Virus record (IMG/VR): IMGVR_UViG_2563366837_000008
DNA length: 23,594 nt
Direction: 5' to 3' (one strand)
DNA from: a virus
Taxonomy: Duplodnaviria > Heunggongvirae > Uroviricota > Caudoviricetes
The notes under the pieces were generated by a model that saw only the letters and a list, made by a program, of their open reading frames with translations, ran no database searches and was not told the DNA's origin. Made by a program: the position numbers and the translations under genes. Within the stretch, counting starts at the first letter, position 1. Every line of letters begins with the position of its first letter. Shown in pieces: positions 5,456 to 17,217 of this stretch.

Positions 5456-5637
5456 GATAGCGGTCATGTGATGCCGGTTTCCCGGTAACTCAGCACCGGT
5501 ATCTGAGTCAACGTTTTCTCTACTGGGTCATTTCCGATACGCCCTGCCTGCTGACAGGCTTTCATCACATCTGAAAATATAGCACCCTGACTGATACTGT
5601 AGTACCTAAGGTTCCAGAAACTGTGATGTATCCGGCA

Positions 5638-13760: not shown

Positions 13761-13951
13761 GGACGCACCTCCACCGTAGTTACGTATTTAACCGGGCTAC
13801 CTTTCATTGAGATGGTTTCACACATCTCTGCCGCTTTCAGTTCCGCTGTTTTTCTGGATTTATAGCGACGGTGCCAGACAGATACATCCGTGCGAACTGA
13901 TACATCGTTTCTGTATTCCGTAGTGGAGATGATGATTTCGTAACTAATCAT
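13757..13951 (-). CDS. Hypothetical protein, 64 aa
   Basis: ORF with 4-bp overlaps with the upstream Rha gene and the downstream gene. Confidence 0.5.
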   Translation of the reverse strand: MISYEIIISTTEYRNDVSVRTDVSVWHRRYKSRKTAELKAAEMCETISMKGSPVKYVTTVEVRP

Positions 13952-14802
13952 GGGCGAACCTCCTTGTCAGAACCATTCAGCCTGGAATCAACAAGTGCAG
14001 CGCCAAAAACAGCATCACCAACACGGTCGTACAGTTTGCTAGCCAGCGGAGATTCAACGGCCTTAAGCATTGGATAAAGCTGGCTTGTCCAGATTTGATG
14101 GATTTCACGCAAATGCAGGTATACGCCTCTGGCGTTTCGTGCGACAGCTGACATATCAGACGCATCGGCACCTGATAAACTCTTCTCCATCAGGTTAAAG
14201 GCGTTGATGTATGCCTCTTTGAACCGGGCAGCACGTTTACCAGTGAAGCCCATGGCAAGGAACGCGAAGCCATCGCGGGTGATTTGATAGCAAGGTAGTT
14301 TGCGGCCTGATGCGTCGGTGTATTCACTTAACACAAAATTGTGTTCAGTAAATTCAGCGGAACATTCGAGGTTTCTAATTCTATCTAAAACCCGCTCATG
14401 CCGTTTAGTAAAGTAATTAGCTACTGCAAGAGATGTGGTGACAACGCGACCATTGATAATCGTGATTTCAGGGTGAGATTGGGTTGGGAGAGTAGTCATG
14501 GTGACAGCCCCTATGTTGAATTCAATGAACTCACCACCAAGGCTTTCCACGACCATATAGGTGGTGAGACGTACAGGGGTGGAAATACCGGTCAACATAG
14601 AACCCGGCCCAACCGAAGTTGGCCCTGCACGCCCCACCATAATTTGGGCGTAACGATGCTCATGACACGAAAAAACCGCATGAGCGCGGTTGTGCTCTAT
14701 ATTGAATTTCGGGTTTCCACGCCCGGCACCCGCTTTATAAGGTGCCTGAGCAGTGTAACGTCCCGGAATTGCAGAATCAATATTTGGTCTTGAAATGATC
14801 AT
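13948..14802 (-). CDS. Phage regulatory protein Rha family (Phage_pRha domain in the C-terminal half); start uncertain, 284 aa from 14802 or 183 aa from 14499
   Basis: Rha-like block VVTTSLAVANYFTKRHERVLDRIRNL...YTDASGRKLPCYQITRDGFAFLAMGFTGKRAARFKEAYINAFNLME; the internal ATG at 14499 has a strong AGGGG RBS, the ATG at 14802 has none. Confidence 0.7.
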   Translation of the reverse strand: MIISRPNIDSAIPGRYTAQAPYKAGAGRGNPKFNIEHNRAHAVFSCHEHRYAQIMVGRAGPTSVGPGSMLTGISTPVRLTTYMVVESLGGEFIEFNIGAVTMTTLPTQSHPEITIINGRVVTTSLAVANYFTKRHERVLDRIRNLECSAEFTEHNFVLSEYTDASGRKLPCYQITRDGFAFLAMGFTGKRAARFKEAYINAFNLMEKSLSGADASDMSAVARNARGVYLHLREIHQIWTSQLYPMLKAVESPLASKLYDRVGDAVFGAALVDSRLNGSDKEVRP

Positions 14803-14825
14803 ATAGCTGCTGATATCTTTAGAAC

Positions 14826-14911
14826 TGTTCTTGGATGTTTCGGAGCCGTTTTATGCGAAACAGCTCCCCGTTATTGATGTTGAGTGAGCCGGGTTACTCC
14901 CGGCTTTTTTT
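14826..14911 (+). ncRNA. Candidate OOP-like antisense small RNA, about 85 nt, ending at the + strand terminator
   Basis: Putative promoter TTGAAA (14790..14795), 18-bp spacer, TATCTT (14814..19), then an internal stem-loop (GGAGC...GCTCC) and the terminator; architecture and antisense position resemble lambda OOP. Inference only. Confidence 0.3.
14887..14911 (+). terminator. Rho-independent terminator on the + strand (AGCCGGG-TTACT-CCCGGCT followed by TTTTTTT), antisense to the pR operon
   Basis: Perfect 7-bp stem plus 7-T run; the T-run overlaps the stop codon of the upstream - strand gene. Confidence 0.5.
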
Positions 14912-15618
14912 CATCGCTGCCAACCAATAACCTGAAATAACCCCATTTTCGGGTGATACCAGCGAGTCCCTCGCGGTTCTGCTTCCTCCATAACCCGATA
15001 AAAAGCAGCCATAAACGGTTCCACAGCAACAATTGCGCGACGTGACAACAATCCGTCCGGCGTCATGAACTCATGTGTGTCTGTAGGAATTTGATAGGCG
15101 TTCACCAGATTGCGGCATTTATCATCTGACAAACCGGTTTTTGCTTTCAGTTGGCGATATCCGGCATAGCCCTCACGAATAGTGCCCTTTTTAATTTGCT
15201 CGACTGTTTCAGCAACGTGGCTGACTTTTTCTTCCACCTGAGTGATCCGTTTCTGTTGGCGAACGGCTTCAAGAGCCATCGCGGCAACCATTTCGATTTC
15301 GCTCATTGGCTTACGGATCTGTTCTTCCAGTTCGCGCCAGCGATCTACCAGGCAAGCTGTGAATTCAGGACAGAGCTGTGCGACGACAATGATGCTGTCG
15401 CGCTTACCTCGTTCACCTTCGAATACATACGCGCTAGAAAATCGGCGAGGCCCAAGTGATTGTTTATTCTCAATTTCCACAGTCTGTGGAAATTGGATGA
15501 TTCCCTTTTTAGCCAGTGTTTCAATAGTTCTCTTAACACTATCTGGTCGGCTTCCCACCAACTCTGCGATCTCAACGCTGGTCATGGATGCTTTGCCGTT
15601 AAAAATTGCGGTGTTCAT
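14911..15618 (-). CDS. Phage regulatory / antirepressor-like protein with N-terminal HTH-type DNA-binding domain (Rha/ORF6N-like), 235 aa
   Basis: N-terminus MTSVEIAELVGSRPDSVKRTIETLAKKGII; strong AGGAGA RBS; first large gene downstream of the divergent operator region. Confidence 0.6.
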   Translation of the reverse strand: MNTAIFNGKASMTSVEIAELVGSRPDSVKRTIETLAKKGIIQFPQTVEIENKQSLGPRRFSSAYVFEGERGKRDSIIVVAQLCPEFTACLVDRWRELEEQIRKPMSEIEMVAAMALEAVRQQKRITQVEEKVSHVAETVEQIKKGTIREGYAGYRQLKAKTGLSDDKCRNLVNAYQIPTDTHEFMTPDGLLSRRAIVAVEPFMAAFYRVMEEAEPRGTRWYHPKMGLFQVIGWQR

Positions 15619-15842
15619 TGTTGGTCTCCTGTGGGCTTGTCATCTTCTGTATTCGCTAGACTTGGGTGTGTATATGGAATGCTCGGATCCAGATGACAAA
15701 GAATGGCAACATCCTCCGGAACACCTCGCGTTTTCCACTTTCCAACACCTTGACTGCCACGAGGCCTTCCTTTCTTTGGGAACCTGCGACCAATAGCGGC
15801 ATTGGTTTTAAATTGAATTTTTAATATTTCATAAAGGGTCAT
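15615..15842 (-). CDS. Candidate small gene at the cro position, 75 aa, basic with AT-hook-like KKGRPRG segment; doubtful
   Basis: ORF whose TGA overlaps the ATG of the next gene (ATGA); begins about 110 bp from the cI start across the operator region; weak RBS and Gly/Pro/Arg-rich low-complexity tail argue against it. Confidence 0.25.
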   Translation of the reverse strand: MTLYEILKIQFKTNAAIGRRFPKKGRPRGSQGVGKWKTRGVPEDVAILCHLDPSIPYTHPSLANTEDDKPTGDQQ

Positions 15843-15953
15843 TCTTTAGTCTCACGCCAGATACTTTGTTATCCAACGATGTTAACCACAGGAACCCAAA
15901 GTATCAAGAAATTCTGTTACTTTAGTATCAACAGCCATGAGAGGAGAAGAAAA
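15843..15953. promoter_or_regulatory. OR-like divergent promoter/operator region between cI and the pR operon
   Basis: Two copies of an operator-like motif with core GTATCAA (15898..15908 and 15922..15932); on the - strand a TTGATA / 17 bp / TAACAT promoter-like arrangement overlaps them; strong GAGGAG RBS for cI. Confidence 0.5.
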
Positions 15954-16610
15954 ATGAAGTCTTTAGGTGAACGTCTCATCAACGCACGGCAAAAAGCTGG
16001 GTTAACACAAGATGCGTTGGCTAAAAAAGCTGGGGTCACCAGAGTTGCAATAAGTAAAGCCGAGCAAGGCCTTACAAAAAGTTTCAACGGTGACACCCTT
16101 TTTAAAGTTGCAGCTGCACTGCGGTGTTCACCGCAGTGGCTTCAGAACGGAGATGAAAAAGATAAGCATTGGGAAAATAATGTTAAGAGCTGCCCACAGA
16201 GAGACACAGCACACTCTTACCCTGTAATTAACTGGGTTCAGGCAGGATTATTCGCAACTTCTGGTGATGACTACAACATGTATGATCAGGATAATTGGAG
16301 GCATTCTGTAAAATACGCTGGTGAGAGGGGGTTCTGGCTGGAAGTGCACGGAGACTCAATGACTTCGCCCGTAGGAATAACATTTCCTGAAGGAATGTCG
16401 ATCCTTGTCAACCCAGATAAAGAAGTTTTTTCAGGGTGTTACGTCATCGCCAGAAAAAAATCTACCAATGAAGCAACATTCAAAAAATATATTTCTGACA
16501 TGGGAAAGGCGTTTCTAAAGCCCCTTAATCCACAATATCCAATCATAGAAATGGACAATGATTGCGAAATAGTAGGTGTTGTGGTTGATGCCAGGTGGGA
16601 TATTTTCTGA
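15954..16610 (+). CDS. cI: CI-type prophage repressor (N-terminal HTH_XRE + C-terminal S24 LexA-like autopeptidase), 218 aa
   Basis: HTH LTQDALAKKAGVTRVAISKAEQG; Ala-Gly cleavage-site candidate (VQAGLF); S24 Ser/Lys dyad context (HGDSMTSP, ATFKKY); GAGGAG RBS. The track ORF starts 25 codons upstream (15879), which I reject. Confidence 0.85.
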   Translation: MKSLGERLINARQKAGLTQDALAKKAGVTRVAISKAEQGLTKSFNGDTLFKVAAALRCSPQWLQNGDEKDKHWENNVKSCPQRDTAHSYPVINWVQAGLFATSGDDYNMYDQDNWRHSVKYAGERGFWLEVHGDSMTSPVGITFPEGMSILVNPDKEVFSGCYVIARKKSTNEATFKKYISDMGKAFLKPLNPQYPIIEMDNDCEIVGVVVDARWDIF

Positions 16611-16713
16611 CCAGACACAAAACACAAAAAGAAACCAAAGTATCAAAAATCACTTGCCACACCTTGATACCTTAGTTACCATAAAACAAAGTTCGTAACT
16701 GAGGTATCATCTC
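16611..16713 (+). promoter_or_regulatory. OL/pL-like operator-promoter region downstream of cI
   Basis: The same operator core recurs at 16638..16648 (AAAGTATCAAA), inverted at 16664..16674 (TTGATACCTTA), and partially at about 16702..16710; candidate promoter TTGCCA (16654..59) / 17 bp / TACCAT. Confidence 0.45.
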
Positions 16714-17217
16714 ATGATCAATAAAGCTACAACTCTTGACTGTCTCGAAGAACTGAAAAACCTCGGCAGCCTCATTACACTAATAGCAAAAGCAACACCT
16801 GATGCTACGCTCTCTAGCGATATAGAGTCATGCGCAGGACTGGCATGGGATATGACAAATAGCATATCCAGAAAGCTATCGTCAGCAATGCTTTTACAGA
16901 ACAAAAATTCTGCAATCAACAACCGTCTTTGCACCCAACGCGAAGCCTGCGGCTTAACAACCGCCGAACTCGCCAGGCTGCTCGATCTCGATGAAGAAAT
17001 TATCATCCAGTGGGAGAGCGGAGAGTATGAACCAACTATCAGTATGCTTATCCCACTGGCAAATATTCTTGGCTGCGATCCGATGTGGCTGTTAACTGGT
17101 GAGGTTACTCCTCCGGAGCAACCAAAAAGTGAGGAGCAGCAACACCATGACGCATCTCAACAAGTTTGCCCCTTATCTCGCGAAGCTCTTCTACGGAAGA
17201 ACCAATACCAATGGTGA
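16714..17217 (+). CDS. Hypothetical HTH_XRE-domain protein, 167 aa, first gene downstream of the pL-like promoter
   Basis: GAGGT RBS 9 nt upstream; HTH in the C-terminal half (LCTQREACGLTTAELARLLDLDEEIIIQWESGEYEPTISMLIPLANILGCDPMWLLTGE); no arginine-rich N-like motif; Gln-rich low-complexity tail. Confidence 0.6.
   Translation: MINKATTLDCLEELKNLGSLITLIAKATPDATLSSDIESCAGLAWDMTNSISRKLSSAMLLQNKNSAINNRLCTQREACGLTTAELARLLDLDEEIIIQWESGEYEPTISMLIPLANILGCDPMWLLTGEVTPPEQPKSEEQQHHDASQQVCPLSREALLRKNQYQW

Follow-up and report, generated by a model that had tools for sequence, protein, structure and literature searches.

The operators of phage lambda are 17 bp long and lie 23-24 bp apart from centre to centre, and its pR and pRM promoters start about 82 bp from each other. 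In P22 and 434, outer half-sites of 5-7 bp surround a 4-bp A/T-rich centre, and the operators measure 18 bp in P22 and 14 bp in 434. The repressors of these two phages read the operator centres indirectly, with central A-tracts raising affinity, and the site of phage 933W is a dyad of 15 bp centred on a single base pair (PMC3317979). The number of operators varies among immunity types, with three OR and two OL sites in 933W and four OR sites in H-19B (PMC8065619).

Here, we analysed the flanks of the cI gene in a 23,594-bp stretch of phage DNA, the whole of which is referred to as the window. The GTATCAA dyad is present three times on each side of cI in a phiP27-like lambdoid prophage, which points to an ordinary lambda-type genetic switch. 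The six 14-bp dyads are very probably the immunity operators (three in OR, three in OL) of this phiP27-type prophage. Their sequence is apparently specific to this switch and uncharacterised; a full-text literature search, whose coverage did not extend to the phiP27 genome paper (PMC127862), returned no operator description for the motif or for the phiP27 repressor.

The lambdoid setting

The cI gene (15954..16610, plus strand) encodes a repressor of 218 aa with an N-terminal HTH domain (HTH_3, E 1.6e-14) and a C-terminal LexA-like S24 self-cleavage domain (Peptidase_S24, E 3.2e-22), the architecture expected of a lambdoid repressor. It matches the lambda cI structure 3bdn over residues 12-215 (E 9e-34) and is a full-length homologue of lambda cI. 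The C-terminal domain aligns well to that of lambda cI, and VQ-A97-G98-LF, G-D-S135-M-T and TFK177K178 correspond to VQAG, GNSMT and TFKK, respectively. The N-terminal domain has 434 Cro and P22 c2 as its nearest sequence matches (E about 1e-8), and the recognition helix region lies at G27-VTRVAISKAE-37.

Divergent from cI, as is usual for a small Cro-type DNA-binding protein, lies an ORF of 75 aa (15615..15842, minus strand) with a predicted Cro-like fold; it heads the rightward early operon, which is read here from the minus strand. Its leftward counterpart, on the plus strand, begins with a gene for a 167-aa HTH_3 protein (16714..17217, plus strand; HTH at residues 75-126), which has weak DicA and CII-like matches. 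This protein follows OL in place of an N-like antiterminator, which was looked for as the first pL gene and not found there; such a protein is not required for the operator interpretation. According to the RefSeq annotation of a 100%-identical prophage of E. coli U1, the genes run int-xis-...-cI / cro-...-replication-Q-lysis, which is lambdoid and conforms to the genome order int-xis-early left-cI-cro-replication-Q-lysis-packaging. In E. coli, the prophage sits beside yecE/yecN. The earlier note had likened the cI flanks to lambda OR and OL, a reading borne out by the cI homologue, the predicted Cro-like fold, the lambdoid order and the candidate promoters that overlap the sites.

A 14-bp dyad, its conservation and its reader

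GTATCAA occurs on the plus strand at 15901-15907, 15925-15931 and 16640-16646 and on the minus strand at 16664-16670, and a partial copy, GTATCAT, is found at 16704-16710, all within the intervals that the earlier note had given. As it had also described, the flanks are similar, 15885-15910 and 16624-16649 forming a 26-nt direct repeat of 81% identity, and the partial copy overlaps the Shine-Dalgarno sequence GAGG (16701-16704) of the gene starting at 16714. The motif does recur on both sides of cI, although not as a 7-mer: GTATCAA is half of a two-fold-symmetric 14-bp dyad, GWWAC-N4-GTWWC (18 bp with flanks), with TTGATAC as the best half-site and TTGATAC-N4-GTATCAA as the optimum. Counted as dyads, the sites number three per side rather than the two and two and a half first proposed, the first OR site having been missed. 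Each operator combines one consensus half-site with one weaker half-site, and the centres are spaced 32 and 24 bp apart in OR and 35 and 29 bp apart in OL.

An equally frequent motif elsewhere would have spoken for chance or compositional recurrence in A/T-rich DNA, or for a non-functional remnant of an OL/OR duplication. The bare 7-mer is indeed only moderately specific, with ten copies in the window against 2.6 expected and six of the ten outside the cI flanks; likewise, the eight one-mismatch dyads outside these flanks come near the 6.4 expected by chance for the whole window. The full dyad is far more specific. GWWAC-N4-GTWWC has four exact matches in 23,594 bp against 0.19 expected, a number reached in none of 100 shuffles, and all four fall in the cI flanks, within about 215 bp of intergenic DNA. 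OR holds two more copies, each with a single mismatch (15860-15873 and 15892-15905). In a leave-one-out weight-matrix scan, every held-out site ranked 16th or better among 47,154 positions, and the search for extra operators elsewhere in the window yielded only a single weak site (5591-5608).

The dyads are also conserved. Among 70 close relatives (cI at least 86% identical), 65 carry three OR and three OL sites at no more than one mismatch; nine score two OR sites, and in one the contig breaks off within cI. In this set 12 of 60 half-site columns vary, whereas variation affects 81 of 123 intergenic columns outside the half-sites (Fisher p 6e-9). In eight lineages of five genera (Escherichia, Klebsiella, Photorhabdus, Providencia and Salmonella) that share an identical recognition helix at a cI identity of 53-75%, 42 of 60 half-site columns are invariant, compared with 13 of 130 other intergenic columns (p 9e-17); as the compared sequences share descent, both p-values overstate independence. 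The operator sites are thus conserved islands within otherwise diverged intergenic DNA. Natural variants shift the weak halves toward the consensus, giving perfect palindromes at OR-a in the Stx2a phage 12E129 (GATACTTAAGTATC) and at OL-a in lineage L069 (GATACTTTAGTATC), and the consensus half of OR-a lies on opposite sides in different lineages. Together with the overlap between the sites and conserved promoter hexamers, the confinement of the exact dyads and their conservation in five genera effectively refute the chance or remnant reading.

Conservation of the operators leaves the identity of the protein that reads them to be considered. Among cI homologues of at most 51% identity, retrieved by protein-pattern scans, the motif is mostly absent, as expected of other immunity types. 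The comparison with related immunity types proposed in the earlier note was informative here, as homologues with a different recognition helix carry different dyads at the same places. P22-type homologues (L072, L078) have ATTTAAG-N4-CTTAA sites at the equivalent places. To our knowledge, cI and Cro bind the same operators in every lambdoid switch characterised so far; the alternative is that the dyads are bound solely by a regulator other than cI, either the 75-aa Cro-like protein or the HTH protein encoded at 16714-17217. The Cro-like family accompanies the motif in every GTATC-type lineage examined, so that the comparison largely fails to tell cI and Cro apart, and the gene next after OL has an HTH_3 domain as well. 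A Serratia lineage (L084), however, keeps the same Cro-like family (QAVGKWKIRGVPEDVAIL conserved) while its half-sites change to TAAAC/GTTTA along with the cI helix, SRMAISK; in an Aeromonas lineage (L098), Cro is unrelated, the cI helix is TRVSISK and the dyads are of the GTAAC type. Moreover, the HTH gene is not a neighbour of cI in L122, L124 and L128, where the sites are still present. On this sample of one Serratia and one Aeromonas lineage, half-site specificity appears to track cI and not the Cro-like protein, and binding solely by another regulator is quite improbable.

Promoters and proposed wiring

A promoter scan placed a candidate pR on the minus strand (15879..15907), with -35 TTGATA (15907-15902), a 17-bp spacer, -10 TAACAT (15884-15879) and an inferred start near 15872. 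By eye, its columns read TTGATA-17-TANNNT in seven of the eight lineages. The candidate pL lies on the plus strand (16654..16682; -35 TTGCCA, 17-bp spacer, -10 TACCAT; inferred start near 16689), and relatives have TTGACA or TTGCNN, 17 bp and TACATT or TACCTT at the same place. The pR hexamers overlap OR-b/OR-a and the pL hexamers OL-b, and a second operator cluster thus lies across cI at the leftward early promoter. Of the promoter layout suggested in the earlier note, pR facing the Cro-like gene and pL facing the downstream gene were recovered, whereas pRM was not obvious, no match to the sigma-70 consensus being found for it by the consensus promoter scan. We infer a candidate pRM from an extended -10, TG-T-TACTTT (15915..15923, plus strand; inferred start near 15930), so that the dyads between cI and cro would overlap divergent promoters. 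Its TACTTT is invariant across the eight lineages, and T15915, outside the operator core, is T in 8/8 while the preceding base varies. Two other -10 elements were rejected: TAGTAT (15923-15928) varies among relatives at its key second position, and TATCAA (15926-15931) varies over the whole hexamer.

Within OR, OR-a (15860..15873, GATACTTTGTTATC, one mismatch to the dyad) covers about -1 to +13 of the candidate pR and is found at the same place in all eight lineages. OR-b (15892..15907, core 15892-15905, GAACCCAAAGTATC plus flank AA) covers -33 to -20, and its TATCAA end gives, on the minus strand, the candidate pR -35 hexamer TTGATA; CAAAGTATCAA at this site shows no variation in the eight lineages. 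OR-c (15916..15931, core 15916-15929, GTTACTTTAGTATC plus flank AA) overlaps the candidate pRM -10. A LexA box considered at OR-c was rejected, as the sequence is CTGT-N13-ACAG (15914-15934) rather than the required CTGT-N8-ACAG and is not conserved in L002, L066 and L069. Across cI, OL-a (16631..16646, core 16631-16644, GAAACCAAAGTATC plus flank AA) lies roughly between -58 and -45 relative to the candidate pL, and OL-b (16664..16679, core 16666-16679, flank TT plus GATACCTTAGTTAC) at -23 to -10, in the spacer and -10; its GATAC..T.GTTAC is invariant in 8/8 lineages. OL-c (16695..16710, core 16695-16708, GTAACTGAGGTATC plus AT) lies at about +7 to +20 and overlaps the Shine-Dalgarno sequence of the first pL gene. 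It is found in the phiP27 clade, L124 and L126 and is missing from L122 and L128, which have two OL sites only.

One cI dimer would bind per dyad, each HTH recognition helix (TRVAISK) reading one outer half-site of 5-7 bp, with the 4-bp A/T-rich centre probably not contacted directly, like that of the P22 c2 and 434 repressors. With spacings unlike those of lambda, adjacent dimers may cooperate at some pairs of sites or at none. Occupancy of OR-b and OR-a would block pR, while OL-b, with help from OL-a and OL-c, would block pL, and OL-c occupancy would also cover the DNA of the ribosome binding site of the first pL gene. As OR-c lies over the candidate extended -10 cI promoter TGnTACTTT, its occupancy would give negative autoregulation. 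The candidate pRM start places OR-b at about -32 and not at the -42 activating position of lambda, so that positive autoregulation should not be assumed. Upon DNA damage, RecA would stimulate cI to cleave itself at the conserved Ala97-Gly98 and so free both early promoters, after which the Cro-like protein presumably binds the same sites and shuts off cI synthesis.

The OL-b/OL-c pair may also be read differently, as primarily an RNA hairpin masking the ribosome binding site from which the first pL gene is translated, besides or instead of being operators. Positions 16665-16709 fold as a 15-bp hairpin (dG -20 kcal/mol, z -5.7) in which even the 4-bp operator centres are complementary, though a repressor need not constrain them. 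No intrinsic terminator was found between cI and OL in the window, and one is present in four distant relatives; the whole phiP27 clade, in which no terminator follows cI, retains the hairpin (-17 to -21), and four lineages with a terminator do not have it (-4 to -10). This contrast may reflect a single evolutionary event, however, and both hairpin arms fit the same dyad consensus as the other four sites. OL-b is invariant even where the hairpin is absent, compensatory double changes were not observed (three substitutions preserve pairing via G-U, one breaks it), and the candidate pL transcript would hold the 3' arm only. A primary role as a hairpin is therefore unlikely.

A related proposal, to which we give little weight, is that the phiP27-clade switch is wired unlike that of lambda, without OR2-type activation of pRM and with the OL-b/OL-c hairpin as a translational gate. 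With the candidate pR and pRM starts about 58 bp apart and the candidate pRM, an extended -10 promoter, inside OR-c, cI at OR-b would not activate through the lambda OR2 contact. With no terminator after cI, the hairpin of this inverted pair would mask the ribosome binding site of the following gene in cI read-through transcripts alone; pL transcripts, and not lysogenic cI transcripts, would then yield the HTH protein encoded at 16714. If true, the same DNA would act on two levels, as a pair of protein operators and as a translational gate that depends on the promoter of origin. We retain the operator reading for all six dyads.

Comparison with known systems

The phiP27-type immunity is found in 331 of 5,426 complete E. 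coli genomes and also in Stx1a-, Stx2a- and Stx2e-converting phages. Its operator sequence, site number and likely promoters are now defined. Repressor-operator affinities in Stx-converting phages set spontaneous induction and therefore toxin release. The pairs TRVAISK-GATAC, SRMAISK-TAAAC and SNVAISQ-TTAAG further provide a natural series for the study of repressor/operator co-evolution.

Phage phiP27 itself (NC_003356, genes L10-L11-L12) has the same immunity module, with 95.5% identity in DNA, 98% in cI and all six sites. Stx1a and Stx2a phages at yecE share the module as well (DNA about 85%, cI 93% identical) and have the six sites. The phiP27 and Stx1a/Stx2a records hold no operator or promoter features and name the proteins only 'putative lambda repressor' or 'hypothetical protein'. 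The Stx phages 933W and H-19B are likewise lambdoid phages of E. coli, and operator number varies among them as it does here, where L122 and L128 have two OL sites. The 933W site differs in sequence from the dyad described here, and cI is only about 33-36% identical to the sampled Stx phage repressors of other immunity types.

The operator geometry is the same as that of P22 and 434, whereas the TRVAISK helix and TTGATAC half-site differ from SNVAISQ and ATTTAAG of P22 c2; cI identity to P22-type repressors is about 45%. With lambda, the locus shares three dyads between the divergent cI and cro genes and three beyond cI at the leftward promoter, the pairing of a consensus half-site with a weaker one in each operator, the VQAG, G-x-SMT and TFKK motifs of the repressor and the lambdoid gene order. 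It differs from lambda in that the sites are 14-18 bp long and of other sequence, their centres are 24-35 bp apart, the starts of the candidate pR and pRM are closer together, OR-b falls outside the activating position of OR2, the early operon at pL opens with a gene for an HTH protein and not N, and cI has no terminator after it. The rexAB genes are absent between cI and OL, so that only about 775 bp separate OR from OL. No new kind of system is revealed by these differences; the locus has a lambda-type OR/OL operator set.

Symmetric sites on both sides of cI

The cI gene (15954-16610, 218 aa) lies between two putative operator clusters, OR towards the divergent cro-like gene and OL beyond the cI 3' end. 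The copies of GTATCAA/TTGATAC that an earlier note had reported on both sides of cI were found as described (GTATCAA at 15901-15907, 15925-15931 and 16640-16646; TTGATAC at 16664-16670; the partial copy, GTATCAT, at 16704-16710), and the first copies upstream and downstream of cI do have similar flanks, which form a 26-nt direct repeat with 81% identity. When aligned on GTATC, each copy turned out to be the right half of a 14-bp two-fold-symmetric site, GWWAC-N4-GTWWC (hereafter dyad). The five copies stand; this dyad structure and a further site, OR-a, had been overlooked. The upstream cluster consists of OR-a (15860-15873, GATAC TTTG TTATC), OR-b (15892-15905, GAACC CAAA GTATC), both with one mismatch to the dyad, and OR-c (15916-15929, GTTAC TTTA GTATC); the downstream cluster of OL-a (16631-16644, GAAAC CAAA GTATC), OL-b (16666-16679, GATAC CTTA GTTAC) and OL-c (16695-16708, GTAAC TGAG GTATC). 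Every site combines one weaker half with one consensus half, GTATC, which in most cases continues to GTATCAA. The centre-to-centre spacings are 32, 24, 35 and 29 bp, and OL and OR are separated by about 775 bp.

In a search of the whole window, the bare 7-mer was modestly specific (10 copies versus 2.6 expected), whereas all four exact matches to the dyad within the 23,594 bp are located in the cI flanks (0.19 expected; none of 100 shuffles reached four). One-mismatch dyads occur eight times elsewhere in the window, as predicted by chance. When the sites were left out of the weight matrix one at a time, the omitted site always ranked among the top 16 of 47,154 positions scanned. Apart from the six, just one dyad in the window, CTGATACTGTAGTACCTA at 5591-5608, reached a reasonable score; it sits downstream of Q between tRNA genes and a nanS-like esterase, scored 12.7, compared to 19-26 for the six operators, and is probably a chance occurrence.

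Genes and candidate promoters of the immunity region

The cI product contains HTH_3 and Peptidase_S24 domains and is alignable along its full length to lambda cI (3bdn, E 9e-34). The alignment includes the stretches VQAG, G-x-SMT and TFKK, in which the lambda protein has its cleavage site and its catalytic Ser and Lys. The nearest relatives of the N-terminal domain of the cI product are 434 Cro and P22 c2. The divergent cro-like gene (15842-15615, minus strand) encodes a 75-aa protein for which no sequence-family assignment was obtained, and structure prediction gives it a fold like that of N15, Xfaso1 and P22 Cro. The corresponding family is small, unannotated and confined to Enterobacterales (42 clusters), and apparently has no Pfam or NCBIfam model; its members share a basic insertion between predicted helices, which is conserved as P-[KR]-[KR]-G-[KR]-x-R. 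Directly after the cro-like gene, the rightward operon contains two Rha/anti-repressor-like genes (13948-15618, minus strand; 235 and 284 aa), the 284-aa product bearing Ash and Phage_pRha domains. The first gene downstream of OL (16714-17217, 167 aa) encodes a protein with an HTH_3 domain in its C-terminal half; it matches PHROG 4739 and, weakly, DicA, RstR and CII-like proteins, and is no antiterminator of the N type. In a Providencia relative (L126), cI is likewise followed by an HTH gene of this kind.

With 100% identity, the window matches a prophage of E. coli U1 located next to yecE/yecN. The gene order of this prophage runs through int, xis, early-left genes, the HTH gene and cI; from the cro-like gene onwards follow the two Rha-type genes, DnaC/DnaB-type replication genes and Q (QuuD), and then porin, tRNAs, esterase, lysis genes and terminase. 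The closest named phage is phiP27 (95.5% DNA identity), followed by Stx1a and Stx2a phages (about 85%).

A promoter scan placed a candidate pR on the minus strand at 15907-15879 (TTGATA-17-TAACAT), facing the cro-like gene. OR-b supplies the -35 hexamer with its GTATCAA end, and seven of eight lineages have TTGATA-17-TANNNT in the corresponding columns. A candidate pL on the plus strand at 16654-16682 (TTGCCA-17-TACCAT) faces the downstream gene; its hexamers in relatives read TTGACA and TACATT. Counted from a putative pR start near 15872, the positions would be about -57/-44 for OR-c, -33/-20 for OR-b and -1/+13 for OR-a; counted from a putative pL start near 16689, they would be about -58/-45 for OL-a, -23/-10 for OL-b and +7/+20 for OL-c. 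The scan returned no promoter for cI. An extended -10 element, TG-T-TACTTT (15915-15923), is the strongest candidate; although position 15915 is outside the operator core and the base next to it varies, all eight lineages have T there. This element would start transcription near 15930, with OR-c across -14 to -1 and OR-b near -32, as opposed to -42 for the activating position in lambda.

Conservation and proposed recognition of the sites

Of the 70 close relatives, defined by a cI identity of 86% or more, 65 have three upstream and three downstream sites with at most one mismatch each; nine score two upstream sites, and one contig ends inside cI. The two-fold symmetry is supported by natural variants: OR-a of the Stx2a phage 12E129 is a perfect palindrome, GATACTTAAGTATC, and OL-a of another relative (L069) reads GATACTTTAGTATC. 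Four further lineages, from Klebsiella, Photorhabdus, Providencia and Salmonella, were reached via Cro-like homologues. Their cI proteins are 53-75% identical to that of the prophage, with an identical recognition-helix region (GVTRVAISKAE), and the same dyads occur in the same places amid otherwise diverged DNA. Within 25-27 distinct intergenic sequences of the close relatives, 12 of 60 half-site columns are variable versus 81 of the 123 remaining columns (Fisher p 6e-9), and across eight lineages 42 of 60 versus 13 of 130 are invariant (p 9e-17); as the sequences are related by descent, these values overstate independence, but within one alignment a clear contrast remains.

Comparison with related immunity types, as suggested earlier, revealed other dyads at equivalent places beside other cI recognition helices. 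In a Serratia prophage (L084/L071; cI 51% identical, helix SRMAISK), TAAAC-N4-GTTTA dyads flank cI on both sides and the divergent gene is a member of the Cro-like family described above. This prophage represents a naturally occurring variant of the switch with a different specificity. P22-type repressors (SNAAISQ; L072, L078) are accompanied by ATTTAAG-N4-CTTAA at equivalent positions, and GTAAC-type dyads occur beside an unrelated Cro in a prophage of Aeromonas (TRVSISK). As other cI helices carry other dyads, even with the same Cro-like family, these single lineages indirectly suggest that half-site identity tracks the cI helix.

From the observed sites, their exclusivity, promoter overlap and conservation, and the protein architectures, we infer a switch in which cI dimers would bind each dyad via the HTH. 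At OR-b and OR-a, cI would repress pR, and through OL-b, backed by OL-a and OL-c, pL, while OR-c would mediate negative autoregulation. RecA-stimulated self-cleavage of cI at Ala97-Gly98 would lead to prophage induction, and the Cro-like protein would thereafter use the same sites.

The OL hairpin and comparison with known systems

OL-b and OL-c are inverted copies of each other, including their 4-bp centres. RNA spanning both (16665-16709) folds into a 15-bp hairpin (dG -20 kcal/mol, z -5.7), burying the Shine-Dalgarno sequence GAGG (16701-16704) of the gene starting at 16714. The partial copy GTATCAT overlaps this GAGG, in line with the RBS overlap stated in the earlier note. Both arms would be present only in transcripts reading through from cI. 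The stretch from the end of cI to OL (16611-16630) contains no intrinsic terminator, and cI transcripts may here run on into the early-left operon unless blocked by bound repressor. The hairpin is retained in the whole phiP27 clade, where cI has no terminator, and is missing in four distant relatives with the same operators (L122, L124, L126, L128), all of which have a clear GC hairpin plus T-run after cI, as do L071, L072 and L078. As no compensatory changes were seen among relatives, the hairpin may be a by-product of operator symmetry.

Several Stx phages carry this immunity type, as do 331 of 5,426 complete E. coli genomes, making the operator set useful for annotation and engineering. Database records hold no annotated operators at this locus, and the accessible literature, which did not include the phiP27 genome paper, contains no description of them; new here is an operator set of a known lambdoid type. 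P22 and 434 operators consist of outer half-sites flanking a 4-bp centre, a geometry shared by the present sites. The centres are read indirectly by the P22 and 434 repressors (PMC3317979). As in lambdoid phages in general, where 933W has three OR and two OL sites and H-19B four OR sites (PMC8065619), site number varies, with only two OL sites in two distant lineages. The proposed likeness to lambda OR/OL held for all features of a lambdoid immunity region that sequence can address, and the six operators would work in the same manner. Compared to lambda, the operator sequence differs, OR is compact, the prophage lacks rexAB and a terminator after cI, the first pL gene encodes an HTH protein instead of N, and Rha-type genes follow the cro-like gene where lambda would have cII.
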